Source: a virus. From it: DNA of 38,888 bases. The position numbers and the translations under genes were made by a program. Position 1 is the first letter of the stretch. Each line of letters begins with the position of its first letter. This document shows positions 6,263 through 35,089 of the stretch, piece by piece. The notes beneath the pieces are model-generated. The model worked only from the letters and a program-made list of their open reading frames with translations, was not told the origin of the DNA and did not search any database. Location of the stretch: the UHGV virus genome UHGV-0098678. One strand, given 5' to 3'.

Positions 6263-6277
6263 TTACCTTTCAGGTAA
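6263..6277. promoter_or_regulatory. 15-bp palindrome TTACC-N5-GGTAA (putative repressor operator)
   Basis: TTACCtttcaGGTAA, extended palindrome aTTACC...GGTAAt at 6262-6278; about 40 bp upstream of the LexA box and antirepressor gene; same core as the site at 24915. Confidence 0.5.
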
Positions 6278-6314
6278 TTTGCAAAACGTGCTGGATAGCA
6301 AACAAATTATTTGA

Positions 6315-6334
6315 TACTGTATAAATATACAGTT
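6315..6334. promoter_or_regulatory. LexA (SOS) box
   Basis: tACTGTataaatatACAGtt: CTGT-N8-ACAG with AT-rich spacer, matching the gammaproteobacterial LexA consensus TACTGTATATATATACAGTA; ends 6 nt before the ATG at 6340. Confidence 0.8.
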
Positions 6335-6339
6335 ATTGC

Positions 6340-6612
6340 ATGGAGAAGATTAAGATGCAGCAGTATCACTATCCACTGGAAGAGGGATTTACCGAAAGGA
6401 TTCACACGCCGGGAGGCGTCAGGTCACTGGTGGAGGGATCGCACTTGATGAAATTACTCCGGGATCTCGATAAGGATGGATTTAATGTCGATGGCCCACT
6501 TGCCGAACTGACTGCACTGATTAACTACGTCACCAGCTCACAGATGTCTATGCAGGATCTGCAAACACATCTCGACTATTGTGCCGAACAATTACGAAAA
6601 CAAACCAGATAA
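6340..6612 (+). CDS. small LexA-controlled antirepressor-like protein (start 6340 or 6355)
   Basis: 90-aa ORF directly behind the LexA box; about 75 aa align with the C-terminal domain of the adjacent Bro-N protein (LMKLLRDLDKDGFNVDGPLAELT vs LMNLLNQLQDDGHDVSGAAAELT; QDLQTH vs RDIQTH). Confidence 0.55.
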   Translation: MEKIKMQQYHYPLEEGFTERIHTPGGVRSLVEGSHLMKLLRDLDKDGFNVDGPLAELTALINYVTSSQMSMQDLQTHLDYCAEQLRKQTR

Positions 6613-6643
6613 GGTTTGAAATTACCAAATGGAGTGCTTATAT

Positions 6644-6658
6644 TTACCTTTGCGGTAA
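6644..6658. promoter_or_regulatory. 15-bp palindrome TTACC-N5-GGTAA (putative operator)
   Basis: TTACCtttgcGGTAA inside a 19-bp perfect palindrome atTTACCtttgcGGTAAat (6642-6660); itself flanked by inverted repeat GGAGTGC/GCACTCC. Confidence 0.45.
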
Positions 6659-6751
6659 ATTTACATTGCACTCCTCTTGTGCCATAGTAATCAGGCACTG
6701 GCAAAATCCAGTGCCGGGATTGGTCTCCCGGATTACTACAGAGGCACATAT

Positions 6752-6771
6752 GCCGCATAAGCGGTTTTTTT
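6752..6771 (+). terminator. weak rho-independent terminator candidate
   Basis: Short GC stem (CCGC ataa GCGG) followed by seven T residues, about 140 nt downstream of the small antirepressor ORF. Confidence 0.3.
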
Positions 6772-6925
6772 ATGTGTAAAGCGCACCTATTCTATGGTGG
6801 GCTGTGTGGGGGCACCGAAAGGTGCGCCGGGTTCCTTTGTAGCCGGTAAGACCAACTCTGCACAGTTCACCACCATCTGATTGGTCTCAGCGGTGGTGAT
6901 TAACCTAACTACAAAGGTGATCGCC

Positions 6926-7618
6926 ATGAATACCAAACCTTCCATCTTTTCCTTTGAGTCATCCTGCCAGATCCGTATGTTCATGATTGACGGAGAACCT
7001 TGGTTTGTCACCAAAGATGTGTGCAATGCTTTGAATATTGATGTTACACAAGCGAGAAAACTTGATAAAAAAGGCTGGAACAAAAAGGGGCTGTATTCAA
7101 TACAGACCCCTGGTGGAATACAAGAACTATCCATCGTTTCAGAATCAGGTCTCTACATCCTTATTCTGCGTTGCAAAGAGGCAATGACAGAGGGAACGAG
7201 AGCATTCAGATTTCTTGAATGGGTTACAGGTGAGGTTCTTCCTCAGATCCGCCGCACCGGAAGTTACATTAAAAACTCGCTCCCGCAGGAAGAACGCATA
7301 AAGATGGTTGCCGACCAGGTAGCCAACGCCACAGCATCAGCAGTGATGCAGGCAATGAAGATAGAGAACAAAACCTACAGTGCCCCACTGAAGCCCGGCT
7401 ACCGCAGCCTGATTCACTCGCCGTCTGGTGTTCTCGGCCTGACGGAGAACTCACTGCTGATGAATCTGCTGAACCAGTTACAGGACGACGGGCACGACGT
7501 ATCGGGCGCGGCGGCGGAGCTGACCACCATGTTCTGCTACATCGTTGGTGTGAGCAAATGCCTGCGTGATATCCAGACGCACGCGGAGTACATCAACGAC
7601 AAGGCAGGGTTCTTCTGA
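6926..7618 (+). CDS. Bro-N domain antirepressor
   Basis: ATG at 6926 with SD AAAGGTGA; N-terminus FSFESSCQIRMFMIDGEPWFVTKDVCNALNI matches the Bro-N/antirepressor fold; C-terminal domain is paralogous to the small ORF at 6340-6612. Confidence 0.75.
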   Translation: MNTKPSIFSFESSCQIRMFMIDGEPWFVTKDVCNALNIDVTQARKLDKKGWNKKGLYSIQTPGGIQELSIVSESGLYILILRCKEAMTEGTRAFRFLEWVTGEVLPQIRRTGSYIKNSLPQEERIKMVADQVANATASAVMQAMKIENKTYSAPLKPGYRSLIHSPSGVLGLTENSLLMNLLNQLQDDGHDVSGAAAELTTMFCYIVGVSKCLRDIQTHAEYINDKAGFF

Positions 7619-7684
7619 CGGGCGGCGGCACAGGGATGTGCCTTTAAAATAATCATTGGCGATGTGATGTAGATTCGCGTAATA

Positions 7685-7699
7685 TTACCTTAAAGGTAA
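7685..7699. promoter_or_regulatory. 15-bp palindrome TTACC-N5-GGTAA (putative operator)
   Basis: TTACCttaaaGGTAA immediately upstream of the SD (AGGAGG) and ATG of the 55-aa ORF at 7712. Confidence 0.45.
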
Positions 7700-7711
7700 A
7701 GGAGGCGCGAT

Positions 7712-7879
7712 ATGACAGCGTTGAAAAATCGTACTCAGCACAATGAACAAGCCAAGCAATGCTGGGATGTCATTGGAAAAGTTATGCTTGGTCGCGCAAG
7801 CAAAGAGCGCGACAAGGATATGGTTTACCAGACAGGAACATCTTTTAGCGACTTCAAGGCGGCATTTCGCTCCAAATAG
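7712..7879 (+). CDS. hypothetical small basic protein (55 aa)
   Basis: Not in the ORF track (under 60 aa); ATG 7712 with strong SD AAAGGAGG; translated by hand as MTALKNRTQHNEQAKQCWDVIGKVMLGRASKERDKDMVYQTGTSFSDFKAAFRSK; stop TAG 7877-7879. Confidence 0.45.
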   Translation: MTALKNRTQHNEQAKQCWDVIGKVMLGRASKERDKDMVYQTGTSFSDFKAAFRSK

Positions 7880-7899
7880 AAGCACATCAGGAGTTTTCC

Positions 7900-8343
7900 T
7901 TGAAGTTTAACATTAGAATATCTAATAGTTTTCTACATGGGGAAAGCAACACCCCTTTCGCTGTAGACGGACCTTTCCTTACTGATGATGAAATAAAAAT
8001 CATACAAAGGTTTTTAGAGGATGTTGCCAATGGAAGGGCGCTTGTTGGAAAAAACAAGCCATCGTGGGTTGATGATAACCATGATAAAATTCCCGGCTCA
8101 GACAATTATGAGCAAGAGAATTATTGGCATTATCATTGTGGGCCAACATGGTATCCAAACACATTTAAGAATTATACCATTAACTTAAATTTCAACCCTG
8201 GCGGAATGCATTCTAATGAATGCATTCATTATGCAAAAAATGATAATGAAATTGTCATTGTTGGATTTTCAAGAGAACACATACCTTTCCTTTCATCAGA
8301 TGGAAACAACAATCCGCTTTTTAATGATGAAGAAGAAGAATAA
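7900..8343 (+). CDS. hypothetical protein with acidic C-terminal tail (moron)
   Basis: TTG start at 7900 with AGGAG 6 nt upstream; 147 aa, low-GC coding sequence, C-terminus ...NDEEEE; followed directly by a terminator. No recognisable family. Confidence 0.55.
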   Translation: MKFNIRISNSFLHGESNTPFAVDGPFLTDDEIKIIQRFLEDVANGRALVGKNKPSWVDDNHDKIPGSDNYEQENYWHYHCGPTWYPNTFKNYTINLNFNPGGMHSNECIHYAKNDNEIVIVGFSREHIPFLSSDGNNNPLFNDEEEE

Positions 8344-8365
8344 GCCCGCGCTGCGGGCTTTTTTG
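8343..8365 (+). terminator. rho-independent terminator
   Basis: Stem AGCCCGC/GCGGGCT with 3-nt loop followed by TTTTTT, starting at the stop codon of the 7900-8343 gene. Confidence 0.7.
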
Positions 8366-8436
8366 TGGACGAAACAAAAGTCAGTGCTACACTCATTGAC
8401 GCCACATTGAGGTGGCTTATAGATGGAAATTTCACA

Positions 8437-8598
8437 ATGAAAAAAGCATTTGCTGCACTGTTCGTTTTGTTGTCTCTGGTAGCTTCAACTCAGGCCTTTG
8501 CCGGTCGTTGTCAGCACGACAGCGACACTGCTGCTGACGGCTCCCGCTGCGGTGGGCGTTCTGCGGATTCCCGTCCGGGCGGCGGTGGCATTCGTTAA
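8437..8598 (+). CDS. small secreted Cys-containing Gly/Arg-rich peptide (53 aa precursor)
   Basis: Internal ATG 8437 of the track ORF 8365-8598 gives MKKAFAALFVLLSLVASTQAFA (signal peptide) followed by a roughly 30-aa mature part with two Cys; weak SD. Confidence 0.35.
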   Translation: MKKAFAALFVLLSLVASTQAFAGRCQHDSDTAADGSRCGGRSADSRPGGGGIR

Positions 8599-8627
8599 AA
8601 ACAAGGCCGCGAAAGCGGCCTGTTTGA
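8597..8627. terminator. bidirectional rho-independent terminator
   Basis: A-rich tract, stem GGCCGC gaaa GCGGCC (GNRA-type loop), then TGTTTG; lies between the convergent genes ending at 8598 (+) and 8628 (-). Confidence 0.6.
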
Positions 8628-9479
8628 TCACTGTGCAGTTTTCGCTGATCGATTTTCAGCTCTAAATTCAAGAACCGTTTCAATATTTCTTTCCTTCAGC
8701 ATATCAATAACATTTTTATTCATTTGACTATCACTGGTTAATAACTGGTAAACGTTGCTTCTCTCTTTATCAGAGTTTTCTTTAACAGCTGCTTTGCATG
8801 CCAAATGCTTATTGAAATTTTCTACATCGCTAGTACAGGAATTTACGGCTGCTGATGAAATATCAGACGCTGAAGAAACACCGTCATCCAAACGTTTTAT
8901 AGCATTTTCTATACATGAGTTAAGGGAATAAACGACAACTGAGCGATACCCTTCAGACGCACACCATTCTAAATTTCTTGAAGGATCGAGTGGTTTTACT
9001 TCGCTGGATTGAATTAACTTGTCAAAAACTGACTTATATTCAATCTGTTTTTTATCTATAGCCCATACTTCAGTAGCTGATTTATAATTCCCCGTATGCC
9101 TATTAACATCAAATCCATGTTTTATAAGCAAATCTGCCCATGAAAGATTTATTGATTCATTGTTATGAGGCCATTTTCCTGTCAGAACCGCCCCCATAGA
9201 CCCCATATATCCGCCATATGATGGTATAGCACCATGGCTCAGTAACTTCTCTGCAACCACAGGGCAATTAATTACATAAGAGGCGTAAAGCCCATTCCAT
9301 AAAGCCCCTCTATAGTAATCGCCACGATTAGGTTCTTTTAAGTCGATAGCCTTTGATAATTGTTCGCACGTTTTGCATGCATCAAAGTTATCCTTATTGC
9401 ATTGCAATGAACTGGCAGCTGTAGGATTTACAGAGACTATTGAAAGCACTATGCCAAAAAACAAATTTATTTTTTTCAT
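8628..9479 (-). CDS. secreted Cys-rich protein, possibly with degenerate ankyrin-like repeats (moron)
   Basis: ATG 9479 lies 1 nt after the stop of the upstream virion-protein gene; signal peptide MKKINLFFGIVLSIVSVNPTAASS; AT-rich; segments such as ADLLIKHGFDVNRHTG resemble ankyrin repeat cores. Confidence 0.55.
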   Translation of the reverse strand: MKKINLFFGIVLSIVSVNPTAASSLQCNKDNFDACKTCEQLSKAIDLKEPNRGDYYRGALWNGLYASYVINCPVVAEKLLSHGAIPSYGGYMGSMGAVLTGKWPHNNESINLSWADLLIKHGFDVNRHTGNYKSATEVWAIDKKQIEYKSVFDKLIQSSEVKPLDPSRNLEWCASEGYRSVVVYSLNSCIENAIKRLDDGVSSASDISSAAVNSCTSDVENFNKHLACKAAVKENSDKERSNVYQLLTSDSQMNKNVIDMLKERNIETVLEFRAENRSAKTAQ

Positions 9480-9480
9480 C

Positions 9481-12400
9481 CTATTTCATCTGCTCTTCAA
9501 CTTTATTTAGTAATGGTGATATCGCCCACAGATTCTGAAAAGGTAGCATTTTACGGACAGCGTGGGTTTGCTGGCTGTCAAATTCTCCGTTAAGTACACC
9601 ATTTGCAACCGTCGCGGCATCACCGCCAAGATCAAAGGTAGGACCAAGTAAAGCACCAATAGCATTACGACTCTGAAACCTTGATACCGGAGGCGCACCA
9701 AACATCGCGCCAAGACCAAACCTACCGCCGCTTATGTTCTCAACGGTATTCAGCGGCTCAGAGAGCCAGCCAAGCATTCCGCCCCGGTCGATCCCCTCTT
9801 TCACAAGGTTATTCCAGCTGTAGTCGATATCGCGACCGCTTAACTTCTGTTTCATCATATAGACCATTGAGCCAAGCGCAATCGTGCCAAGCGCACCAAG
9901 ATAGAATGCAGCATCGCCCTGCTGGATACCAGATACCAGCACCCTGTTATGCTGTGCGAAGATAAACGTTTTGAACTGCGTGATCATCTTCCAGCCTTCT
10001 TTACTAAAAAACAGCGGTGTATCACCTACGCCAGGCGTTACAATCACTGAGTCTACATCTTTCAGCACTGCAGACTGGAAAATCTCTCTAGCGAAACGGT
10101 CATCCCACAGATGACTATGCCCGGTTAACAGCCCGTCCATATCCTCTCCGTGCTTCCCGAATTGCTCCCCGATTCGGCGCAGAACATCTTCATTGATGCC
10201 GACCTGTGCCATCTTCCGCATTTCACTTTTGGAGAGCGTGCCACCAGCAGAAACTTGGCGAGCCGCGTCAAGTATCCTCGACTGCACTATCATCCCAGAC
10301 CATGATTTAAGTGCGCTGTTCCACTGATTCATCAGCGTCCAGTTACCGAATTTCTGCGTCATCCAGTTCAGACCTCGCTCAGCGGCGCTTCTCCGGCTAT
10401 AGGGGTCAGTAAGATCCGCTATAGCCTTTGTACGCGTAGACAGGACATAATCAAGCCCAACTGCCATTTCTCGCAAATCCCTGGTTGCAATTTTTACTGA
10501 GTCCATATTTTTAAGCATGCTTACCATTGGTCCGAGAGATTTTCTCAGGCCATGCTGCATCATCGGTCGCATCAGATCAGTTGCAGCGGAGACAGTCATT
10601 CCACCAAGCAAACGGAGGAAGTTAATATTCCTAGCAACTCGCCCGGCACGAACAAAGAAACTGCGTGGATCTTGAGGTGCACCGTAAGTACCAAGCAGTC
10701 GATCACGCATAGCCGTAATATCCCTAATATCAGCCTCCCGTTGCTTCTCAAGAACTGCACGTCGTTTAGGTGTTTTAGCCTCTTTTATTAGCCGGGTATA
10801 TTCCTCACTAACCTGACGGATTTGCTCCCCCATATCTTTACGGCCAAACTGCGCAGTCAGCTCAATTTCTGGTGCCACCTGCCGGAGATAACTTTCCATG
10901 ATGTAGTTAACATCTGATTCAAGAAAATCTTCTATACGCTCATCAGGAATAAGCAGCGTTCTGCTTTTAGTGAAACCAGCCCGACCAACGAGTCTCTCTG
11001 GGATAATATCGGCTGGTACAAGCCCGGAAGGTGCGCCTATTATTTTATTCACGATCTCGTCAGCAGCGTCCTCTGCTTCCTCTCGGGATAGAGGCTCCAT
11101 CTGCTTCAGTGCTCGCTCGCGGCTTGCATTCAGCCTTGTGGTTGAATTTGCCCGTTTTTGCAGTCGGCGAAGCTCAGAACGATATTTCCGTGGATTATCC
11201 AGCAACTCCATATGGCGCTGATAGACAGGAAGCTCACTCTTTGCCTGCGCTATATCATCAAGGCGTGTTTTAAGGTCAGAGCTTTCTTTCATCATTCTTG
11301 CCTGAAGTTTTTCTGATGAAGTCTCGGCCAACTCTTTTTCTATTCTTGTAAGACGCGCCTGTGTGTCAGTCTCCTGAGATATAAGCTTATTTCGTTTATC
11401 CAGTTCTTCCATGAGTAGAATTTTTTTACCAGACCATTTCTCCGCTTCAGCGATTTCACTAGCGAGAGCATCAGCGCGCGGTGCTGATTCCTCTGCAGTT
11501 TTTAGCAATGAATTTATCTTTTCAATTCGCTGACCTGCTTTGTCAGCACCTTTGGCACTAATCCCTTGTATCCAGTTGGCAATTCGCCCTCTGAATTCAG
11601 TGCGGTCGGAAAGTATCTTATCGAACTTATAAATGCGGGGAAGATAACTCTTCGCCGTCACGACATCGATATCCTCAGGAAGGATCCCCAATTCCTGCAT
11701 ACGGGCTTTTGTGGTCTCAAAAATGGGGCGGATTCTGGCGGCTGCTTGTGAAACCTCAGGAATATCACTCTGATCACCACGGCGCATAGCCATGCCAACA
11801 GCTTCATTGAAATCAATAAAGTTCATCCTCTTCACGCCGCGGGCGCTGACAGATTTGCTGTACTGCTGGTAAGCATCACGAGTAGCTTCCATCTGCTTAT
11901 AAAGCATGGCGTCGTATTGCTTAATCTTAGTCTCGACTGCCGTAAACGTAGCCAACCCCTCATCATTTTTGGCGAAGAAATAGTTATTTTCGGCAAGCTG
12001 CTGGTTAATCTGACGGGAGACAAGAGATGGTGATTGCGCCAAGCGGCCAGCAGGAGTGACACTCAACGTTTTGTTAGCAAGTCCAAGTCCAGCGAGCTGT
12101 TCCTGATCGAGTGTGGTATTGAAAACCTGAGCTGCACCAATGCTTTGAGGAGAATCCATACCTCGCAAATGATTACCTACTGAGTTAACCACTGCCTCGC
12201 GCGCGCTAGGTCCAGCAAGTAGCTGTGCACCAGCACCAAGGATCCCACCAACGAGAGCATCAACAACAACGTTCGATACGCTCTCCATCGGTGAGCGAGC
12301 TTCCTGAGTGGCCTGTAATGCGGCTTCTGATACTCCCCCACCAGCAGCATTCGCCAGGGCAAAACGCCCTGCCGTCTCAGCAATACTTCCTCCACGCGCT

Positions 12401-24824: not shown

Positions 24825-24914
24825 ATCAATGACTCCGTACGCAATTAAATTATTACCAATTTAACCACATATGATTTATTTATCGTAGACAGTTGACATT
24901 TAACGTGCGAATTA

Positions 24915-24929
24915 TTACCTTTCAGGTAA
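24915..24929. promoter_or_regulatory. 15-bp palindrome TTACC-N5-GGTAA (putative operator)
   Basis: TTACCtttcaGGTAA, same core as the site at 6263; a TTGACA hexamer lies 17 nt upstream (24893-24898); in the noncoding gap between the portal-side genes and the tRNA. Confidence 0.45.
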
Positions 24930-25251: not shown

Positions 25252-25328
25252 GTGGCATTAGCTCAGTTGGACAGAGCAACCGCCTTCTAAGCGGTTGGTC
25301 GCAGGTTCGAATCCTGCATGCCACGCCA
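25252..25328 (+). tRNA. tRNA-Arg (anticodon UCU)
   Basis: Hand-folded cloverleaf: acceptor GTGGCAT/ATGCCAC, D-arm GCTC...GAGC, anticodon stem ACCGC/GCGGT with loop CTTCTAA (anticodon TCT), 5-nt variable loop, T-arm GCAGG-TTCGAAT-CCTGC, discriminator G, encoded CCA. Confidence 0.85.
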
Positions 25329-25969: not shown

Positions 25970-25995
25970 AGCCCGCCGATTCGCGGGCTTTTTTA
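25970..25995 (+). terminator. rho-independent terminator
   Basis: Stem GCCCGC cgattc GCGGGC followed by TTTTTT; overlaps the stop codon of the convergent TerL gene. Confidence 0.65.
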
Positions 25996-27468
25996 TGCAA
26001 AAGGATCATAGTCTGTGATGGCTTTGCCTTGCTGGTTCTGCTGCCCAGGAATTCGCAGACGCTTCGACACAGGGAAAGCAAACGTCAGCAGTAGCGCATC
26101 GCCTTTACCCGGCGAACGCCCAAGCCGCTCCTTGATATCTTCCTTCGGTTCGATAACGATTTTACCGTCCACACGAACTTTGTACTCTGCTGCCGACAGG
26201 TCGTCCGCTGTTTCCTGGTCATCCAGCATGCCGCCGAGCCTCAGCCATGTCTTGCATGAGTTGAACATCTCCCCACGCTTGTTGAGCATCTGCGGGTCAG
26301 TAGACGCGCCACCGAACGGAACAAGTTGCCATGTACGACCCCAGCCGTCACCGATTGACTTCAGACCAGTTCCGTAACCGAAGTCGATGAACACTGCGTC
26401 AGCCTGGTACTGGTCTTCAAAGTCAGCGATACGCTTCGCCATAATCAGATCGTCAGTGGTCTTGTTGCCAGTCCACAGCACCTTACTGTGCAGCCCCTGC
26501 CGCAGGTATATCACAGCGTCATCAACGCCTGAGTATGCCGGGTCAACGCCGATTATCACCGGAGCATGTGCAACCTGCGCAGCGGTTACCACCCGTTTCA
26601 TTGCCTCGTCAGTAAGACCGGTAGGGATAAACTGCAATTCAGATGCATCAGGGAATATGCCGCGCACACGGATTTTAACGAAGTCGCTATCTTCCCCGTA
26701 GTCATCAACCCATTTCTGCAACTGCTGTTTGTTAGTGCCTTCCACCGTCCGGCTGTCAATCTGCGCAGTTTTCCAGCGGTGTTTATATTTGCGGAAACAT
26801 TCGCGGAAACGCCCGGTGTTACGTGTAGGGTTTCCGAACGCTACCCAGATAATCTCAGTGTCTTCGTCCGTAAGCGCACCCTCAGCAACTTCCCACACCA
26901 GATCCGCAATGTTCGACGCTTCATCGAATACCACGATGATGCGTTTGCGCTCGTTGTGTAGTCCGGCGAACGCCTCAGTGTTGTGCTCAGACCAGGGGAT
27001 TGCGTCAGCTCGCCACCGCTTGTCGTGCCCAGGGTCATTGCTGTACATCGCGGTAGCGGTACAGGTAAACCAGTCTTTCGTGATAGCAAGGTTCGACCAC
27101 TTGATAATTTCCGGCCAGGTCTTCGTTCGTAGCTGGTTGTCGGTGTTGGCGGTCACCACAACCTTACAATCCTCGCAAGTGGACATGCCCCAGTTGATCA
27201 GCATTGAGATGAATGCGGATTTACCAATACCGTGACCCGAAGCGCGTGCCAGCATAAGCGGCTGATAGCGCGTCTCTGGATTCTGCAGGTGATCACGTAT
27301 CTCTCGGAACGCATCAGCCTGCCACTGACGTGGACCGGTGGCATGTGCCAGTTCAGTCCCATCTTCCCCCCACGGGAACGCATAGAGGGCATAGCCAAGC
27401 GGATCGTGAGTGAACCCTGCAATATCCTCGATTAACTGCTCTTCAGGAGATAACGCTGTATCTGTCAC
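25993..27468 (-). CDS. terminase large subunit
   Basis: 491 aa; GTG start overlapping the TerS stop (GTGA); Walker A-like ARASGHGIGKS and acidic motif IIVVFDEASNI typical of TerL ATPase domains; C-terminal nuclease-like region. Confidence 0.8.
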   Translation of the reverse strand: MTDTALSPEEQLIEDIAGFTHDPLGYALYAFPWGEDGTELAHATGPRQWQADAFREIRDHLQNPETRYQPLMLARASGHGIGKSAFISMLINWGMSTCEDCKVVVTANTDNQLRTKTWPEIIKWSNLAITKDWFTCTATAMYSNDPGHDKRWRADAIPWSEHNTEAFAGLHNERKRIIVVFDEASNIADLVWEVAEGALTDEDTEIIWVAFGNPTRNTGRFRECFRKYKHRWKTAQIDSRTVEGTNKQQLQKWVDDYGEDSDFVKIRVRGIFPDASELQFIPTGLTDEAMKRVVTAAQVAHAPVIIGVDPAYSGVDDAVIYLRQGLHSKVLWTGNKTTDDLIMAKRIADFEDQYQADAVFIDFGYGTGLKSIGDGWGRTWQLVPFGGASTDPQMLNKRGEMFNSCKTWLRLGGMLDDQETADDLSAAEYKVRVDGKIVIEPKEDIKERLGRSPGKGDALLLTFAFPVSKRLRIPGQQNQQGKAITDYDPFA

Positions 27469-28061
27469 TGATTACCATCCTGACGTTCTTTGAGTCGCTT
27501 CCTGGCTGCTGCTATGCGATCAGCAATTGTCACATTCACATTAACATCCAGACGTTCTTTGAATGCGTTGACATCAACATGCTTACCAATCAGCTCAAGG
27601 TTCTTCACCTTGTCAGGCCATTTAATTTTTTTGAGGATTGTCTCTATTGAATCCTCGTTCATGTTCATGATGGTCGATGACAGATCAAAGCCACTAAGCG
27701 TAGTGCGCCAGATTTTCGGCCACTCACGGATTGGTTTAAGGCTCCCATCGTCGTTGAGGATGTCGATCACGTCCATCTGGTCGATCTCCACCAGGCGCAT
27801 GAGAACGTAATCAGCACTGACACGCATTCGTTTGTTGCGCTCCTCCATCAACTCGGCAATCCGTTTCTGAATGCGTTCATCGCGCATCATGACACTGGCT
27901 TTAACTGCCGCTGTATTTGGGGAGAATCCTGCGTTAATCGCAGCCTGAGTCTGGTTTTCAGGCGTTTTGATGTATGACTGGCAATAAGCCTCCTGCATTG
28001 CTGTGAGCGGCTTAAATTGCGTTGATTTGCGTTTATAGGTTTTAGGTTCAGCAGGCATCAT
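27465..28061 (-). CDS. terminase small subunit (start uncertain)
   Basis: Motif block AMQEAYCQSYIKTPENQTQAAINAGFSPNTAAVKASVMMRDERIQKRIAELMEE matches the TerS DNA-binding domain pattern; start taken at ATG 28061 (MMPAEPK...) because the track ORF begins at an upstream TTG with a hydrophobic extension. Confidence 0.6.
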   Translation of the reverse strand: MMPAEPKTYKRKSTQFKPLTAMQEAYCQSYIKTPENQTQAAINAGFSPNTAAVKASVMMRDERIQKRIAELMEERNKRMRVSADYVLMRLVEIDQMDVIDILNDDGSLKPIREWPKIWRTTLSGFDLSSTIMNMNEDSIETILKKIKWPDKVKNLELIGKHVDVNAFKERLDVNVNVTIADRIAAARKRLKERQDGNQ

Positions 28062-28078
28062 AACTACCGTGGTAATTG

Positions 28079-28093
28079 TTACCGTTGTGGTAA
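28079..28093. promoter_or_regulatory. 15-bp palindrome TTACC-N5-GGTAA (putative operator)
   Basis: TTACCgttgtGGTAA about 18 nt upstream of the proposed TerS start, just downstream of a - strand terminator hairpin. Confidence 0.45.
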
Positions 28094-28103
28094 TAATACC
28101 ATG

Positions 28104-28130
28104 CAAAATAAAGCCGCCATAGTTGGCGGC
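28104..28130 (-). terminator. rho-independent terminator on the - strand upstream of TerS (tR'-like position)
   Basis: On the - strand: GCCGCC aacuau GGCGGC followed by UUUAUUUU; located between the Cys-rich small gene (28180-28518) and TerS. Confidence 0.55.
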
Positions 28131-28179
28131 AGTATTCAAAATCCATCAAATTCATCATGCATAATCTACTCGTGACATG

Positions 28180-28518: not shown

Positions 28519-28792
28519 CAATATTTACCTTTATCGCGAACACCTTTACCGGTTTATCACCGAAGTGCGGATGTGTGATTGTCTTTATTTCATATCCGTT
28601 ATACGGGACGTCAATTCTGCGACTGAAGTCTTCGCGCTTCGGATATCCCTTTGTGATAATCAGGCGGTAATACTTACGGTTAACGAGGCGCTTATTCCAG
28701 TAGTCATTACACAGGCGATACTCTTCCGTTTTCTCCCCGCGAATCATGGCATCGAAGTATTCACCTTTAACGGCAAGTTGCAGGTTAGCCAC
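28511..28792 (-). CDS. hypothetical protein, ASCH-like small beta-barrel candidate
   Basis: 93 aa; GTG start with strong SD AAGGAGG; sequence MANLQLAVKGEYFDAMIRGEKTEEYRL resembles ASCH/DUF3850-type proteins (low confidence). Confidence 0.4.
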   Translation of the reverse strand: MANLQLAVKGEYFDAMIRGEKTEEYRLCNDYWNKRLVNRKYYRLIITKGYPKREDFSRRIDVPYNGYEIKTITHPHFGDKPVKVFAIKVNIDG

Positions 28793-29576: not shown

Positions 29577-29586
29577 GTGTTACTCC

Positions 29587-29850
29587 TTAACCCGCAGTGC
29601 TTTCAACTGATGAGGGGAATAAAATCTTTTCATCAAATCCGGCATTCATATCATGGACAGCAACACACCAATCCATCGACGAACGATTATCAAGAGCCTC
29701 CATGATTTCATCCATGCGGCGCAGGTCATACAGGTAAATGCTTTTATCGCCAATGGTGTAAAAACCAATTTTTTTCGGTGATGGGCAGCGATCAAGAACG
29801 TCCTGTAATTCGTTCAACCATGCCTGTTCTTTTTTTGTCAAAGTTGCCAT
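29587..29850 (-). CDS. hypothetical protein
   Basis: ATG 29850 with SD AAGGA 8 nt upstream (the track ORF 29587-29925 extends upstream in overlap with the neighbouring gene); 87 aa. Confidence 0.4.
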   Translation of the reverse strand: MATLTKKEQAWLNELQDVLDRCPSPKKIGFYTIGDKSIYLYDLRRMDEIMEALDNRSSMDWCVAVHDMNAGFDEKILFPSSVESTAG

Positions 29851-29851
29851 A

Positions 29852-30043
29852 TCAGTTTTCCTTATTAATGCGACAGTGGTTTTTCCAGCGGTTTTGCGCC
29901 GCGCTGGGCTTTTTGCAAAAACCACAATCCATCATCCCGTAATATTTCATCAACCCCATCCGTCGGTTGCTGAGTCTCACCCACTGCCAGACGCCAGGAG
30001 CGTTTCTACGAACTAACAGAATCTTTGCTTTACGGTTTTTCAT
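29852..30043 (-). CDS. hypothetical small basic protein
   Basis: 63 aa; ATG overlaps the stop of the upstream micro-ORF (ATGA); contains CGFCKK motif. Confidence 0.3.
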   Translation of the reverse strand: MKNRKAKILLVRRNAPGVWQWVRLSNRRMGLMKYYGMMDCGFCKKPSAAQNRWKNHCRINKEN

Positions 30044-30216
30044 CGCTTTGCTCTCCTGCGTCTCTTTGCTGCTCGTCGTGCCGCTGCAATACCGGTATGG
30101 CGGCGCTTTGGTGCCGGGATGATGTTGTCAGCCATCAGGACATGTGGCTTTGCAATTAGCGCAGAAGCCCAAAAACGAGTCGGGTACGGTAACAAGCCGA
30201 TACATGCCACACGCAT
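30040..30216 (-). CDS. hypothetical Arg-rich micro-protein (58 aa)
   Basis: Hand-translated (absent from the track as under 60 aa): ATG 30216 overlaps the upstream stop (TAATG) and follows GGAGGTGAG; C-terminus AARRAAKRRRRAKR. Confidence 0.3.
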   Translation of the reverse strand: MRVACIGLLPYPTRFWASALIAKPHVLMADNIIPAPKRRHTGIAAARRAAKRRRRAKR

Positions 30217-30929
30217 TACTCACCTCCTTTGATGCGAATGCCAGCGTCAGACATCATATGCAGATACTCAACTGCATCCTGAACCCATTGACCGCCAATC
30301 CCGTAATAGCGATGCGTAATGATGTCGATAGTTACTAACGGATCTTGTTCGATTAACTTCCGCAGAAACTCTTCCAGGTCACCAGTGCAGTGCTTGATGA
30401 CAGGAGTTTTCCCAGGATGGCGAACAACAAGAAACTGATTTCCGACTTCACGGACTTCGTTGCTTTCCAGTTCTGCAATGCGCTTCTCTGCGGCTTCCAA
30501 CTTCTCGCGCATATCGTCAACGTACTCGACCAGAGAACCGCCAGCAGGAATTTCGCACTCCTCGACCAGTTGGAAGTAGATATCAGCTGCGGCCCGTGTG
30601 TTGCTATGCCTAGCGTCGCCCATCTCACCTTCACGAAGAGCATCGCGTTCGGCGGTAAGATTGGCTATTTTGCTGTCTTTGCCTTCCAGCTCAACGCGCA
30701 GCTTCCCTACCGTTAGCGCAATATCCTCGTTCTCCTGATCGCGGCTTTTGATGTATTGCAGGTTTCTTTCCCGTTCATCCAACAATGCCAGCGCGATATC
30801 TGGCGAAAAGTGCTTCATAAAATCGTTAAGCGCATTAATTCGCTGATCGAAAGGCATTACAGGTGCTTCACCAGCAATTTTTGTTTTTTCAGCGATTTCA
30901 CGAAGCTTTTGATAATCAATCTTGCTCAC
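30216..30929 (-). CDS. hypothetical coiled-coil protein (nin-like region)
   Basis: 237 aa; GTG start with strong SD AAGGAGG, overlapping the upstream stop (GTGA); central coiled-coil-like heptads. Confidence 0.5.
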   Translation of the reverse strand: MSKIDYQKLREIAEKTKIAGEAPVMPFDQRINALNDFMKHFSPDIALALLDERERNLQYIKSRDQENEDIALTVGKLRVELEGKDSKIANLTAERDALREGEMGDARHSNTRAAADIYFQLVEECEIPAGGSLVEYVDDMREKLEAAEKRIAELESNEVREVGNQFLVVRHPGKTPVIKHCTGDLEEFLRKLIEQDPLVTIDIITHRYYGIGGQWVQDAVEYLHMMSDAGIRIKGGE

Positions 30930-31495
30930 TGGTTGCCTCCTTTGCGAAGCTGGGCGGCGATATCTTCGAGAACGCCATCAGAGAATGAGCGGTCAAAATC
31001 GCCTTCCGGCGCATTAGCCATAAACTCAGTAGAGGTAAGAATCATCCGGGCAATATCCGCGGCGTTCTTCGCAGTATCATCAATAAAACCAGCTTCCCAG
31101 GCAGCCAGCATTCTGTTCGCCACAAAGTAAGCGCCCTCCTTGCGTGCTTCAGTCTTCACTTCAGCTAGGAAAGCATCGGTGGCTGGAATGGGCTTTTGTG
31201 GTGATATAGCAATGCGAATTGTCTCAAGGTCTGGAGCTGTTTCCGCTGTTGGCACCTTGATATAACCCGTCTGCACCCCATTCATGATGAACCTGCGACG
31301 GTCATCACATATCGCCTTAAGCCCTGCATTCTCCGCCGCCAGCGCATTAGCACGCACCAGTTGCACTTCCAGTTGCGTTGCCAAATCGCTGATCAGCTTT
31401 GCCACACTGCGCATATCAACGGCACCACATTCTGCTTTCAGTTCCGAAGCCATCTCATGCCCGGCGGCAACTAACCCTTTGATATTACTTTCCAT
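30926..31495 (-). CDS. hypothetical protein (nin-like region)
   Basis: 189 aa; ATG 31495 with SD GAGGG; no recognisable motif. Confidence 0.5.
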   Translation of the reverse strand: MESNIKGLVAAGHEMASELKAECGAVDMRSVAKLISDLATQLEVQLVRANALAAENAGLKAICDDRRRFIMNGVQTGYIKVPTAETAPDLETIRIAISPQKPIPATDAFLAEVKTEARKEGAYFVANRMLAAWEAGFIDDTAKNAADIARMILTSTEFMANAPEGDFDRSFSDGVLEDIAAQLRKGGNQ

Positions 31496-31556
31496 CTTTA
31501 CCCTCGCTTATCCACATAACTTATTGATTACATTGATAACTAAAAAGATCGTCGAT

Positions 31557-31901
31557 TCAGAACTCTTCGATTTTCCATCCGCCACCTGCTTTCTTTGGCT
31601 TAACAGTTACCCCGATGATTCGGAACGGATACTGATCTGCGGCGACTTTGGTTTTCACTCTGGCGTCATCGGTCCAGAAACCTTTCACTTCGTGTAGTTC
31701 CATCTCGCCGGTGGCGAGCATCACAGCAAAATCGGGCGTATAGAACGTGTTGTCAGCTAACCGCAGCTTGATACCCTCGAATCGATACCAGGCGATTTCC
31801 CCTGCACGTTTACGCAGCTCAAGGTGCTGGCAATACGCAGATTCTGTTTTGTTCATCTGGCCTGTTTTGAGTCGACCAAGAGCCTGTATCTGTTTTCTCA
31901 T
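31557..31901 (-). CDS. putative PD-(D/E)XK-fold nuclease (DUF1064-like)
   Basis: 114 aa; motif YTPDFAVML...GEMELHEVKG fits a PD...(D/E)XK pattern; ATG 31901 with SD inside an operator-like palindrome. Confidence 0.45.
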   Translation of the reverse strand: MRKQIQALGRLKTGQMNKTESAYCQHLELRKRAGEIAWYRFEGIKLRLADNTFYTPDFAVMLATGEMELHEVKGFWTDDARVKTKVAADQYPFRIIGVTVKPKKAGGGWKIEEF

Positions 31902-31904
31902 GAT

Positions 31905-31919
31905 TTACCTCTAAGGTAA
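31905..31919. promoter_or_regulatory. 15-bp palindrome TTACC-N5-GGTAA (putative operator)
   Basis: TTACCtctaaGGTAA overlapping the SD of the 31557-31901 gene. Confidence 0.45.
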
Positions 31920-31966
31920 TTAAAAACCACATAAGACACGAAATCAATAGAGTTTAGAATATTTTA

Positions 31967-31981
31967 TTACCCAACAGGTAA
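31967..31981. promoter_or_regulatory. 15-bp palindrome TTACC-N5-GGTAA (putative operator)
   Basis: TTACCcaacaGGTAA, 62 bp from the previous site, in the intergenic region downstream of the P-like gene. Confidence 0.45.
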
Positions 31982-32018
31982 TTATCAAGGCGTAAAAAAA
32001 TGCGCTATCGCGCTGGTA

Positions 32019-32819
32019 TTACTTGATAAATCCTGCCGCCTTTCCCCGCCTGTATTCCTCCATCAGCCACTGCGCCGGTGTTATTCCCCCAAGGGTGGCG
32101 GCGTTAGGCATGCACCCGAAACTTCGCCCTGGTGGATGGTAAACGTCTCTCCCTGTGTCCGGAGGCGTACTCATGGGTTCTGGCTTTGCCTGTATGCTGA
32201 TCACCGGATCGGGTATCTGCTGTCCGGAAGCCACCTTTTTCGCCCAATCATCGAGCAGCCTGCGCGCGTGTTTCTCAACCTCTATCTCGCTAAGCTGGCG
32301 CTGATACATTGCACGGCGGGTATCACATACGACCCAGTACATAACCGGATGCCGCCACGGGAATCTTTCGGGACCACCAGGATATAAACTTTTTTCCTTG
32401 CTGTACCGGTGAAACTCCGTCATCACATCGTCAATGGTGACGCCAAGAACCATCTTGCTGTCTTTGCACCACTTGATGAATTGCCCTGGCGACGGCCAGA
32501 ACGGAGATTCACTGGCGCGGGCGTGGCGCATACCAGCAGAAACCTGTTCACGGGTTCGGATCCCCCCTTCGGCAAACGCAGCAATCCACTGCTGTTTTGC
32601 AGCAACTTCCTGCTCTGGCGTCTTCAGGTTGGTTACCACTGCCGCCGGAAACAGTTGTTTCAGCTGTTTGAAAAGGGCATCAACAAGCCTCTCTGCTGAC
32701 ATGTTCACCACGTTGTCATTGTTGGTGTACTGATGCTCATAACCTGACATGCGAGAAAGGGCTTCTCCGTCACGGTTTTGTATCGCGGTAAAAACGTTGT
32801 TCACAAGAAATCCTCCCAT
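32019..32819 (-). CDS. replication protein, lambda P-like (helicase loader)
   Basis: Block QLFPAAVVTNLKTPEQEVAAKQQWIAAFAEGGIRTREQVSAGMRHARASESPFWPSPGQFIKWC aligns with lambda P as recalled (FPASL...RRQWVLAFRENGITTMEQVNAGMRVARRQNRPFLPSPGQFVAWC); start overlaps the O-like gene end. Confidence 0.7.
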   Translation of the reverse strand: MGGFLVNNVFTAIQNRDGEALSRMSGYEHQYTNNDNVVNMSAERLVDALFKQLKQLFPAAVVTNLKTPEQEVAAKQQWIAAFAEGGIRTREQVSAGMRHARASESPFWPSPGQFIKWCKDSKMVLGVTIDDVMTEFHRYSKEKSLYPGGPERFPWRHPVMYWVVCDTRRAMYQRQLSEIEVEKHARRLLDDWAKKVASGQQIPDPVISIQAKPEPMSTPPDTGRDVYHPPGRSFGCMPNAATLGGITPAQWLMEEYRRGKAAGFIK

Positions 32820-33616
32820 GCTTCAGGGCTGTTCCAGTGCGGAACGTTGTTATCAGGTAATGTTGATTGCTTCTGTCTGCTAATCTGCAGCCGCCTTGCC
32901 AGCTTCTGCTCCCACTGTGCCTGATGGTATGCCTTACCCTCAGCCATCCAGTAAATTCTGAACTCTGCAAGTTCCTGTGCCGTTGGCAGACTGTCCAGGT
33001 AGATCCCCTGCAAGGAGCTTTTCCGAAGAAAGTCATCTGATGGCTGCCATTGTTCATGCATGACAAATTTGCCTAATTGCCCTGGCCCACCAGGAGGAAC
33101 AAAGTTATTCATCACGGCGTTGTTTGCGCCGGGGTCATGAGGCACAGAATCCCCGTTTTTTGTCCTGCTCTCCCTCTCTTGGTTAAATGACTGGTTATAT
33201 GACTGGTTCTGGATCCCGTTTTTGGGATCATTCAACATCCCGTTTTTGGGATCATTCAACATCCCGTTTTTGGGTATATTCCCGTTTTCGGTAACATTAC
33301 CGTTTTCGGGTTCATTGCCCCCCTCCCGGTTGCCTTTAATGTTCCCGTTTTTGGTTATATTAAGAGAGAAAACCCGCACTCTTTTCGTCGCTCCCTTTCT
33401 CTCTCCGGTATCTGAAATAAGCCCCATTTTCATGAGCGATATAAGCCCGGCCTGCACGGTTTTTTTATTCAGGCAAGTGTCTTTAACGAGGCGTTCTATG
33501 CTGGGGTAGCAGAGGTTATATTCATCGGCTCTGTCAGCCATCGAGAGCAGTATGAGCTTTAATGACGAGCTACCTGGATCTGTCTCCCAGGCCCAATCTG
33601 TTGCATGTCTGCTCAT
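32801..33616 (-). CDS. replication initiator, lambda O-like (HTH N-terminus, repeat-encoded linker, C-terminal P-interaction-like domain)
   Basis: 271 aa; SD GGAG; N-terminal HTH-like segment (LKLILLSMADRADEYNLCYPSIERLVKD); central Asn/Gly repeats encoded by DNA iterons; positioned directly upstream of the P-like gene. Confidence 0.6.
   Translation of the reverse strand: MSRHATDWAWETDPGSSSLKLILLSMADRADEYNLCYPSIERLVKDTCLNKKTVQAGLISLMKMGLISDTGERKGATKRVRVFSLNITKNGNIKGNREGGNEPENGNVTENGNIPKNGMLNDPKNGMLNDPKNGIQNQSYNQSFNQERESRTKNGDSVPHDPGANNAVMNNFVPPGGPGQLGKFVMHEQWQPSDDFLRKSSLQGIYLDSLPTAQELAEFRIYWMAEGKAYHQAQWEQKLARRLQISRQKQSTLPDNNVPHWNSPEAWEDFL
33213..33354. repeat. iteron array (putative replication origin) inside the O-like gene
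   Basis: Six copies of CCCGTTTT(T/C)GG beginning at 33215, 33239, 33263, 33281, 33300, 33344 (spacing 24, 24, 18, 19, 44 bp), two as perfect 24-bp units ATCCCGTTTTTGGGATCATTCAAC; an additional TGACTGGTT direct repeat at 33188-33208. Confidence 0.6.
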
Positions 33617-33631
33617 GATTAATCTCCGCTA

Positions 33632-33832
33632 TCAGCTTGAATATTGTGGGGAGGAATTAATCATGATCTGCTTAATCTCTGCCCTGATGCGACGGTTTGA
33701 TTCCATGGTGCACTCAACACAGTGTCCGTTGTAAACCCAGCGTTCACTGTCATGTCCGTGCTTACATGGTTTTCCGGTGTAGTAGCGTTTAAGTCCGCGC
33801 TTTGCGGCATCAATACGTGTAATGATTTCCAT
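33632..33832 (-). CDS. hypothetical zinc-ribbon protein (CII-position gene)
   Basis: ATG 33832 (track ORF starts at upstream TTG); 66 aa with CKHGH...HCVEC motif; located between the Cro-like gene and the O-like gene. Confidence 0.4.
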   Translation of the reverse strand: MEIITRIDAAKRGLKRYYTGKPCKHGHDSERWVYNGHCVECTMESNRRIRAEIKQIMINSSPQYSS

Positions 33833-33912
33833 GGTAAGCCCTGTTATTAGTATTTGGATTACGGTTATTTTGTGCTGACACAAAAAAAAGATCAACCAGA
33901 TTTGGTTTTTTA

Positions 33913-33927
33913 TTACCTTTGAGGTAC
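33913..33927. promoter_or_regulatory. imperfect TTACC-N5-GGTAC operator-like palindrome
   Basis: TTACCtttgaGGTAC (one mismatch in the right half) just upstream of the zinc-ribbon gene. Confidence 0.3.
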
Positions 33928-33929
33928 GG

Positions 33930-33962
33930 ATAGATATGAAAAGACCGCCGGGTGGCGGTCTA
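33930..33962 (-). terminator. terminator candidate after the Cro-like gene (tR1-like position)
   Basis: 8-bp stem AGACCGCC/GGCGGTCT with 4-nt loop; on the - strand it is followed by UUUCAUAU. Confidence 0.4.
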
Positions 33963-33982
33963 CAGAGGGTTGTAGCTGGATA

Positions 33983-34213
33983 TCATGAGTAGAAGAAGTA
34001 TGCCAGTTCTGCTTTTGAGCGCAGCCATTGTCTTGTTTTACAGGCTTTAAAAAGCCCATTCATCAATACTTTACCTGGCATTTTGCGCTTACCTGTTAAG
34101 TGAGTCTGGATATAGTGACTCGTCGTTCCGGCTTCCTGTGCGAAGGCTTCACGCTCATCCGGAGTAAGTGCAAGCCAGTGCTTTTTGAAATCGAAATGTC
34201 CGTTATCGCTCAT
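33983..34213 (-). CDS. Cro-like HTH regulator
   Basis: 76 aa, first gene of the - strand early operon divergent from the repressor; HTH-like segment AFAQEAGTTSHYIQTHLTGKRKMPG. Confidence 0.5.
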   Translation of the reverse strand: MSDNGHFDFKKHWLALTPDEREAFAQEAGTTSHYIQTHLTGKRKMPGKVLMNGLFKACKTRQWLRSKAELAYFFYS

Positions 34214-34280
34214 AGCTATTGCCTGATATTTATTTCAGATAATAAATATTCACCCATAAGGTAACAAAAATCAAGGATAG

Positions 34281-34295
34281 TTACCTATGGGGTGC
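34281..34295. promoter_or_regulatory. imperfect operator TTACC-N5-GGTGC in the repressor/Cro intergenic region
   Basis: TTACCtatggGGTGC, centre 17 bp from the adjacent perfect site. Confidence 0.4.
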
Positions 34296-34297
34296 AT

Positions 34298-34312
34298 TTA
34301 CCTGTTGGGTAA
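34298..34312. promoter_or_regulatory. operator TTACC-N5-GGTAA in the repressor/Cro intergenic region (OR-like)
   Basis: TTACCtgttgGGTAA between the divergent Cro-like (start 34213) and repressor (start 34368) genes. Confidence 0.55.
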
Positions 34313-34367
34313 TATTGCTTTAAATTGAATCATCTACTGATTCATATATGAGGCGATTTTCCAGAAA

Positions 34368-34952
34368 ATGAAAAGTATCCAGGACGTCCGCAGGCAAAAT
34401 CTCAACGACTTGATCGACCGTGAATTCAATGGTGTTCAGACGCGGATGGCAGAAAAACTTGGAACTCAGGCAAATCTGGTAAACCGCTGGGCTCTTGGCA
34501 AGAAGGTTATCGGCGACCAGGTTGCACGAAAAATTGAAGCTGCCGCCAATAAACCCCGTAACTGGCTTGATATTGATCGTTCGCTTTCTCAGGAGGGTTT
34601 TCAGCCTGTCGGACCAAGCGACATTGGTCAACTGGCGGCTCACAACCTGGAACGCTGGATGAGCGAAAGCCGCGACCTTTCAACACAGGGAAAACTTCAC
34701 CGCGCATCCGGCGTAGCCCAGGTGACAATCAGCCGCCTGTTAAACAATGAGGTCAGCGTTTCCATTTCCACCCTGGAGAATGTTGCATCCGCATTCGGGC
34801 GTCATGGCTATGAATTACTGATTCACCCGCACGACCCTGCGACCATCAACTATGATCGCTCGCGCTACGCATTGTTACCCGAAACCGAGAAAGCAAAGAT
34901 CGAAAGTTACATTGAATTTGTCATCAACCAGAACGAAAAAAGCAAACAATAA
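34368..34952 (+). CDS. phage repressor-like protein with two HTH domains and no S24 peptidase domain
   Basis: 194 aa; first HTH around QTRMAEKLGTQANLVNRWALGKK, second around LHRASGVAQVTISRLLNNEVSVSISTLENVASAFG; no Ala-Gly/Ser-Lys autocleavage module; sits between operator clusters like lambda cI. Confidence 0.55.
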   Translation: MKSIQDVRRQNLNDLIDREFNGVQTRMAEKLGTQANLVNRWALGKKVIGDQVARKIEAAANKPRNWLDIDRSLSQEGFQPVGPSDIGQLAAHNLERWMSESRDLSTQGKLHRASGVAQVTISRLLNNEVSVSISTLENVASAFGRHGYELLIHPHDPATINYDRSRYALLPETEKAKIESYIEFVINQNEKSKQ

Positions 34953-34972
34953 AACCATAGTTTTCAGTAAGT

Positions 34973-34997
34973 AAGCCGCCTCATGGCGGCTTTTTTA
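34973..34997 (+). terminator. rho-independent terminator after the repressor gene
   Basis: Stem AGCCGCC tcat GGCGGCT followed by TTTTTT. Confidence 0.7.
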
Positions 34998-35009
34998 TTG
35001 CCAGATAGA

Positions 35010-35024
35010 TTACCTTACGGGTAA
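35010..35024. promoter_or_regulatory. operator TTACC-N5-GGTAA (OL-like)
   Basis: TTACCttacgGGTAA downstream of the repressor terminator. Confidence 0.5.
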
Positions 35025-35043
35025 TTTTTTTAACTCATATCTA

Positions 35044-35072
35044 TTGACACCAAACCAAATAAGCATAATTAT
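35044..35072 (+). promoter_or_regulatory. candidate sigma70 promoter (pL-like) for the + strand early operon
   Basis: TTGACA (35044-35049), 17-nt spacer, AATTAT (35067-35072); its -10 abuts the operator at 35075. Confidence 0.4.
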
Positions 35073-35074
35073 TA

Positions 35075-35089
35075 CCCCAACGGTAACAG
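35075..35089. promoter_or_regulatory. operator TTACC-N5-GGTAA (OL-like)
   Basis: TTACCccaacGGTAA immediately downstream of the candidate -10; a further half-site GAGGTAAC follows at 35094-35101. Confidence 0.5.

Follow-up and report, generated by a model that had tools for sequence, protein, structure and literature searches.

Does the repressor of a prophage act only at the switch beside its own gene, or at nearly every transcription unit of the genome? The question is raised by a 15-bp palindrome, TTACC-N5-GGTAA, which is dispersed over the UHGV virus genome UHGV-0098678, a DNA of 38,888 nucleotides that we analysed at its full length (the window). An initial annotation, made by eye, had read this palindrome as the operator of a regulon extending beyond a lambda-like pair of operator regions. 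Bases 1 to ~1706 of the window are the host genes yfgH/yfgI, with the prophage junction near 1707; the remainder is a phiV10/ε15-like podovirus prophage (genus Uetakevirus) inserted beside guaA, whose integrase end lies outside the window, so that the prophage is incomplete here. Its early region is matched in 565 of 5,426 complete E. coli genomes (~1/10). On the evidence below, TTACC-N5-GGTAA is very probably the operator of the prophage's own repressor, Rep, and stands at the start of nearly every transcription unit; we infer that Rep physically binds the sites distant from its gene.

Ten dispersed copies and their conservation in the genus

Exhaustive search of the window returned exactly ten perfect copies (Table 1; sites are named here by their first base). 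The count made by eye was right, as were nine of its coordinates, while the copy placed at 35075 lies at 35072. Dinucleotide-preserving shuffles gave a mean of 0.02 copies and a maximum of 1, which rules out a chance origin. The half-sites TTACC and GGTAA are paired in the window with the 5-nt spacer only, no pairing being found at any other spacing from 0 to 14, and neither other spacings nor an inverted order of the half-sites showed any enrichment. An extension of the palindrome to A-TTACC-N5-GGTAA-T is fitted by 12 of 20 flanking positions. All ten copies are intergenic, in line with the placement between genes and near promoters that had been proposed, and six of them lie 2-28 kb away from rep. 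The copy at 28079 falls within the longest open reading frame (ORF) of TerS (27465-28139), yet upstream of the region homologous to ε15 TerS, which begins at an ATG at 28058-28061, downstream of the operator. The start codons of this longest terS ORF (41-715 in record L001), annotated as terS in phiV10 and in the AR_0086 prophage, are therefore probably mis-annotated.

Copies with one mismatch are found in the window at 6031, 33913 and 34250. The initial annotation had listed 33913 correctly, had missed 34250, and had counted a single mismatch at 34281 (TTACCTATGGGGTGC), which has two. Host DNA holds 14 one-mismatch copies per 212 kb, predicting ~2.5 per prophage, and because the host density is equal we dropped such copies as independent evidence. 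Site 6031, within the tail-fibre gene, is probably a chance occurrence, and the sole support for sites 33913, 34250 and 34281 is their conserved position and spacing in relatives.

The window was compared with phiV10, Salmonella phage ε15, SPC32H, Enterobacter phage Tyrion and Klebsiella phage BUCT711, a set of six genomes spanning four host genera (E. coli, Salmonella, Enterobacter and Klebsiella). Each genome carries 8-11 perfect sites, in about ten syntenic position classes: those at terS, the portal operon, ant/tail fibre, the early-left pair, the rep-cro cluster and the post-replication pair are all syntenic with ε15. Centre-to-centre spacings are fixed, at 17 bp in the rep-cro region (6/6 genomes), at 18 bp at terS (5/5 genomes), and at 62-63 bp in all 12 pairs of the early-left and post-replication promoters (62 bp in 11 of them, 63 bp in one). 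Identity between divergent genomes is ~100% over the ten half-site positions and ~50% over spacer and flanks. The half-site figure is partly circular, since the sites were picked by motif; synteny is the independent evidence. The A/T fraction of the spacer follows the Rep clade (0.85-0.96 in the ε15 type vs 0.60-0.68 in the phiV10 type).

In ε15, all 11 perfect sites fall within the intergenic 6.6% of the genome (P ~1e-13), and the RefSeq record of this phage (NC_004775) holds seven dispersed features annotated as 'protein_bind, repressor, lysogeny', with the sequence ATTACC-N5-GGTAAT. One precedes terS, one precedes the gp3/portal operon, one separates gp19 from the tail fibre, three lie next to the repressor gene and the last follows the replication genes. 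The record covers 7 of the 11 perfect sites, with no annotated site in the rep-cro region; for phiV10, no operator features are given in the record. The repressor-site annotation of ε15 is said to originate with Kropinski et al. in 2007.

The sites also stand in a recurrent relation to promoters. A −10-like hexamer adjoins the operator at no fewer than six sites, i.e. at least at 35072, 6644, 7685, 31905, 28079 and the plus-strand side of 24915. Promoter-like sequences were recognised in 7 of 20 site-orientations vs 2.4% of comparable background positions, and the promoter-operator arrangement is kept across genomes at the early-left, post-replication, post-ant and terS sites. Taken with the ε15 annotation, the synteny and the co-occurrence with Rep, this geometry supports the earlier proposal of a repressor operator that would control many transcription units. 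The genes to which the sites had been assigned (antirepressor, cargo cassette, portal-side operon, TerS, the DUF1064/nuclease gene and the gene after cro) were also identified correctly.

The motif is not a general trait of temperate enterobacterial phages, an idea that we rejected: the lambda genome has no copy and P22 (L012) a single perfect one, inside its replication origin (TTACCAGATCGGTAA at 32861), with a one-mismatch neighbour at 32885, 24 bp apart. This P22 copy shares its consensus with the operators of Uetakevirus but stands in a context unrelated to theirs.

Rep, the Cro-like protein and other explanations

Rep matches the SPC32H repressor (PDB 5d50) with E = 3.5e-42 over residues 1-190 and is 99.5% identical to the phiV10 repressor; identity to ε15-type Rep is ~43% overall and ~53% in the N-terminal domain, and across the genus it ranges over ~43-78%. 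The N-terminal domain is better conserved than the C-terminal one, and the segment NLVNRW is invariant in 6/6 genomes. Homologues were matched at near full length in 36 of 37 records, almost all of them Uetakevirus-like, the 37th being a weak partial match in a Pseudomonas phage. In Pfam, Rep matched only helix-turn-helix (HTH) families, and no S24/LexA-like self-cleavage domain was found. According to papers citing Kim et al. (2016), SPC32H Rep is a tetramer on palindromic DNA, in which the DNA-binding dimers are formed across two dimers; one tetramer is enough for repression, and the tetramerisation domain is like those of DNA-looping regulators. In the near-identical phage ZX5, overexpression of the repressor lowered endolysin and holin mRNA by >99.9% (PMC9782041). 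The way in which spacers track the Rep clade, the better-conserved N-terminal half and the invariant NLVNRW would all fit Rep as the binder of the palindrome.

Several observations weigh against this assignment. The repressor-site features of ε15 are annotations, and from sequence alone one cannot decide whether the main binder is Rep or the Cro-like protein, which is equally conserved. The half-site, whose conservation is a partly circular figure as stated above, is unchanged despite the ~53% N-terminal identity of Rep to ε15 Rep, which calls for conserved contact residues or for another binder. Simple occlusion would not suffice at 6263 or on the portal side of 24915, where operator and putative promoter stand too far apart. 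Finally, no convincing promoter was found at site 33913, nor for rep itself.

A rival possibility is that the main binder is another phage protein, either the Cro-like protein of 76 amino acids or a regulator of 113 amino acids encoded just before terS, with the dispersed copies serving lytic timing (early shut-off or late activation). We regard this as improbable. The Cro-like protein is better conserved across the genus than Rep (58-84% identity, with GTTSHYIQ-HLT invariant), matching the invariant half-site, and the sites of the late units, at −62 to −78, occupy a position more typical of activators. Both small regulators were matched by PHROGs alone, the Cro-like protein in a transcriptional repressor family and the 113-amino-acid protein in a transcriptional regulator family; searches of Pfam, NCBIfam and the sequences of solved structures gave no match for either. 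However, it is to the repressor that the curators of ε15 ascribed the sites, the composition of the spacers varies together with the clade of Rep, and the paired geometry suits a tetramer with two DNA-binding units. Moreover, Cro and repressor share operators in lambda-type switches, so that a role for the Cro-like protein is compatible with Rep as the main binder: as in other switches, it probably shares the operators of Rep, and would use them in lytic growth.

A host element, i.e. a common chromosomal repeat or a borrowed host transcription-factor site, is very hard to credit. The core TACC-N5-GGTA does fit T-N11-A, the very loose pattern of LysR-type sites, and a host factor, LexA, controls ant in this system, but a search of 211,840 bp of host chromosome yielded no perfect copy, as against 10 in the 37 kb of prophage, and there is none in the 1.7 kb of host DNA within the window. 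The initial annotation had proposed a check for a common host repeat, and these counts argue against one. The motif follows the phage through the four host genera and always co-occurs with Rep.

We give just as little weight to the palindromes acting as RNA hairpins (terminators, RNase III sites or translational elements) or as DNA replication iterons or packaging sites: although each 17-mer can be folded into a hairpin of 5-7 bp and the origin of P22 includes a perfect copy and a near one, the hairpins are weak (−3.2 to −4.5 kcal/mol) and without T-tracts, the half-sites are invariant and do not co-vary (a signature of base-specific protein contacts, not of a stem), transcription starts downstream of many of the copies, a distinct iteron array (ATCCC-N6-GGGAT, 33180-33316) is present in a replication gene of the prophage, and the genome-wide dispersal is unlike that of a pac or ori site.

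Operator map and proposed mode of action

With Rep as the favoured binder, the sites, their promoters and the neighbouring features can be ordered along the prophage (Table 1).

Table 1. Coordinates of the operators, promoters and associated features in the window
Feature	Coordinates	Strand	Remarks
rep, 194-amino-acid prophage repressor, N-terminal HTH DNA-binding domain and C-terminal HTH_3/tetramerisation domain	34368..34952	+	homology to PDB 5d50
Cro-like 76-amino-acid regulator, divergent from rep, possible second binder	33983..34213	-	phrog_35 'transcriptional repressor', E = 5.6e-13
Operator, rep-cro intergenic, perfect	34298..34312	.	syntenic in 6/6 genomes
Weak operator, 2 mismatches, 17 bp centre-to-centre from 34298	34281..34295	.	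17-bp pair in 6/6 genomes
Operator, 1 mismatch (TCACC), in −35/spacer of cro-directed promoter	34250..34264	.	48-bp offset from 34298 kept in phiV10, Tyrion
Cro-directed promoter TTGTTA-17-TATTAT	34267..34239	-	
Distal early-left operator, perfect, 19 bp upstream of −35, directly after rep terminator	35010..35024	.	62-bp pair in 6/6 genomes (63 bp in BUCT711)
Proximal early-left operator, perfect	35072..35086	.	TTGACA(35044)-17-AATTAT ends on operator base 1
Distal operator, perfect, of post-replication-gene promoter (unit begins with DUF1064 gene, 31901)	31967..31981	. (unit -)	62-bp pair in 6/6 genomes
Proximal operator, perfect, of post-replication promoter	31905..31919	.	minus-strand TTGATT(31947-31942)-17-TTTAAT(31924-31919) ends on operator base 1
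One-mismatch site, after cro terminator, upstream of 87-amino-acid gene 33632..33895	33913..33927	.	syntenic one-mismatch copies in phiV10, Tyrion, BUCT711
terS operator, perfect, 19 nt after terminator 28113-28130	28079..28093	.	minus-strand extended −10 TGgTATTAT (28101-28093) ends on operator base 1
Weak terS partner, 2 mismatches, 18 bp from 28079, overlaps terS ribosome-binding region	28061..28075	.	18-bp pair in 5/5 genomes covering the region
Operator, perfect, between portal/structural operon (-) and tRNA-Arg/Gp49-family unit (+)	24915..24929	.	adjoins plus-strand TAGACA-18-AATTAT (24886-24915)
Operator, perfect, in divergent ant/tail-fibre intergenic region	6263..6277	.	overlaps no core promoter
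Operator, perfect, adjoining TTGAAA-17-TATATT (6616-6644)	6644..6658	.	syntenic in phiV10, Tyrion, BUCT711
Operator, perfect, adjoining TTGGCG(7656)-18-TAATAT(7680-7685), upstream of cargo genes 7712..7879 and 7900..8343	7685..7699	.	
ant, small antirepressor	6355..6612	+	89% identical to SPC32H Ant (SPC32H_020, gene 'ant')
LexA box TACTGTATAAATATACAGTT, near-consensus, at ant promoter	6315..6334	+	kept in 6/6 genomes
Terminator directly before operator	28113-28130		
Terminator directly before operator	33942-33961	-	
Terminator directly before operator	34973-34992		
Late element copy	24872-24846	-	also upstream of lysis genes in L001-L004
Late element copy	6232-6206	-	also upstream of lysis genes in L001-L004

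At three places a terminator directly precedes an operator, so that the genome can be read as insulated units in series, each under an operator of its own. It would be split into short transcription units, several of them bounded by intrinsic terminators and nearly all headed by one or two operators. Where the −10 ends on the first base of the operator, bound Rep would cover ~−7 to +8 and block RNA polymerase; we propose such occlusion for the early-left, post-replication and terS promoters, for those of the isrK/C4/Bro-N and cargo cassettes, and for the tRNA-side promoter. At the two strongest early promoters a second operator lies exactly 62 bp upstream, ~six helical turns away and just past an A/T-rich stretch ahead of the −35, and in the rep-cro region and at terS partner sites lie 17-18 bp away. 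Published work ascribes two DNA-binding dimers to the Rep tetramer; a single tetramer could then bind both operators of a pair simultaneously, which would explain the fixed spacing of the pairs.

The relatives add some detail on individual sites. Both copies of the 17-bp rep-cro pair are perfect in ε15, SPC32H and BUCT711. The early-left geometry is kept in 6/6 genomes, with a −35 that matches TTGACA at 5 or 6 of 6 positions. At the post-replication promoter, the start codon comes 3 nt after site 31905; an alternative promoter, TTGATA-16-TAAAAT with operator 31967 in its spacer, is not kept in relatives and was not adopted. The AR_0086 prophage has an operator at the place equivalent to 7685, ahead of different cargo.

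Two side observations concern the reach of the map. A tRNA-Arg(tct) gene at 25252-25328, on the plus strand and opposite to the structural genes, lies downstream of the promoter adjoining operator 24915 and may be under Rep control. In every relative a conserved one-mismatch copy, TTACC-N5-GGTAT, is embedded in a longer inverted repeat immediately ahead of the integrase gene (L001 26870, L002 26882, L003 26960, L004 28568, L005 12620 and L006 7437), a position past the right end of the window; this copy may serve as an additional operator or belong to the arm sites of attP.

As for induction, Kim and Ryu reportedly found in 2013 that SPC32H Rep is not cleaved and is inactivated by an Ant protein under LexA control. 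Judged by homology, the window holds all parts of an SPC32H-type Rep/Ant/LexA circuit, and the 89% identity of Ant together with the conserved LexA box suggests that induction proceeds here too through LexA-controlled Ant, without cleavage of Rep. Identity between the phages of E. coli and those of Salmonella is 84-89% for Ant and only ~43% for its target Rep (~38% in the C-terminal, Ant-binding half), an asymmetry that is unexpected for interacting partners. A second antirepressor module appears to follow. Directly downstream of the operator-controlled promoter at 6616-6658 lie an isrK small RNA (6695-6771; Rfam, 74.7 bits) and a C4 antisense RNA (6790-6877; Rfam, 78.6 bits), directly upstream of a Bro-N antirepressor-like gene (6881..7618). 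From its composition this is a P1 immI-like module, which besides Ant would give the prophage two antirepressor systems.

The portal and tail-fibre late units fit this scheme less well, as their operators would stand 65-80 bp upstream of a separate, −35-less promoter-like element. The portal operon has its putative late promoter ~78 bp downstream of operator 24915. For operator 6263, the distance is ~62 bp to the likely start of ant and ~67 bp to the putative late promoter of the tail fibre. The promoter-like element is a second conserved motif, ATAT(A/G)TGGTT-N7-TAnnAT, with a palindromic core (ACC-ATATAT-GGT) and no −35; in the portal, tail-fibre and lysis units it follows the operator at a distance of 30-42 nt. 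There are 2-3 copies per Uetakevirus genome, at syntenic positions, whereas lambda, P22 and the 200 kb of host DNA that were sampled have none. We consider it a candidate late promoter that would depend on an activator. At these late units Rep may act by looping, by preventing upstream contacts or by controlling the divergent promoter. A broader proposal is that Rep tetramers act beyond occlusion, through 62-bp loops at both early promoters, a ~380-bp loop enclosing ant (6263-6644) and control of the −35-less late promoters from −62 to −78. We put this forward tentatively and think it rather doubtful; if true, the logic of this podovirus would resemble that of P1: a master repressor acting at dispersed sites, a dedicated element for late promoters, and no cascade of antitermination. 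In the literature we found no description for Uetakevirus of the late element, its activator or looping at these distances.

The replication region holds repeats of its own. The iteron-like tandem repeats at 33180-33316 lie inside a DnaT-like replication gene (32801..33616) and comprise a 24-nt unit, ATCCCGTTTTTGGGATCATTCAAC (2.6 copies, 100% identity), plus arrays of 12 and 18 nt. By analogy with lambda gene O, this segment is probably the replication origin.

Relation to known repressor systems

The closest systems are those of ε15 and SPC32H (PDB 5d50, 5d4z), of the same genus, and the window shows every testable mark of their Rep operator family: a Rep homologue, the motif, the positions, and Ant with its LexA box. 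The motif ATTACC-N5-GGTAAT has identical half-sites and spacing, the position classes are the same (terS, portal operon, ant/tail fibre, both sides of rep, after the replication genes), Rep is homologous, Ant is 84-89% identical and the LexA box is the same. The window differs from them in having operator spacers that are less A/T-rich and a Rep that is only ~43% identical, in its additional operators before the isrK/C4/Bro-N and cargo cassettes, and in lacking an operator ahead of the lysis genes, since these are contiguous with the tail fibre.

Phage P1 offers the nearest parallel outside the genus. Its late promoters, which depend on Lpa, are −35-less elements with a palindrome upstream of the −10, and the late element described here is of a similar build. 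In both phages (in the window, probably) one repressor directly gates many separate operons and is inactivated by antirepressors and not by cleavage, and a C4 antisense RNA stands ahead of an antirepressor-like gene under an operator-controlled promoter. The C1 repressor of P1 has 22 operators dispersed over the genome (PMC8546580), each serving a separate operon as the sites in the window appear to do. The operator of P1 is, however, an asymmetric 17-mer, ATTGCTCTAATAAATTT (PMC8546580), whereas the motif of the window is palindromic and of another sequence. C1 is unrelated to the XRE/HTH_3-type Rep, and P1 is a plasmid prophage and a myovirus.

The gp71-type repressors of mycobacteriophages L5 and Bxb1 have ~30 dispersed 'stoperators' (PMC1934351). 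Here too there are many repressor sites outside the immunity region, in short intergenic gaps, that silence a whole prophage. Stoperators are asymmetric 13-mers that act in an orientation-dependent manner and halt elongating polymerase within operons (PMC1934351); the sites in the window are palindromic and lie at promoters and operon boundaries, unlike those of the L5 type.

With lambda the window shares a divergent repressor and cro, with a multi-site operator region between them, and, on the far side of the repressor gene, a second set of operators that controls an early-left promoter. Lambda differs in having its sites in two clusters, each of three adjacent sites, in the long-range loop between OL and OR, in a self-cleavage that RecA stimulates, and in its N and Q antitermination cascades. 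The window has at least ten operator positions, 62-bp pairs flanking a promoter and an induction that appears to be based on an antirepressor, and we found in it neither of the lambda hallmarks, an S24 self-cleavage domain and a confinement of operators to two tripartite clusters.

The initial annotation was thus correct in calling the arrangement unlike lambda, but it is not new, with precedents in the ε15 annotation, P1 and L5, and the general picture of phage regulation is unchanged. For this genus, motif and dispersal were already known from the ε15 annotation, and the window is a good new example, not a new kind of regulation. What the present analysis adds is a genus-wide map, the spacing rules, the promoter geometry and a question at the late units: a precise operator map with its promoter geometry is now available for a prophage type that includes relatives of the O157 phage phiV10, the ε15-type layout of one repressor for every operon is kept in E. 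coli, Salmonella, Enterobacter and Klebsiella phages, and the fixed spacings of 17, 18 and 62 bp make the tetramer model of SPC32H Rep testable on natural two-operator templates.

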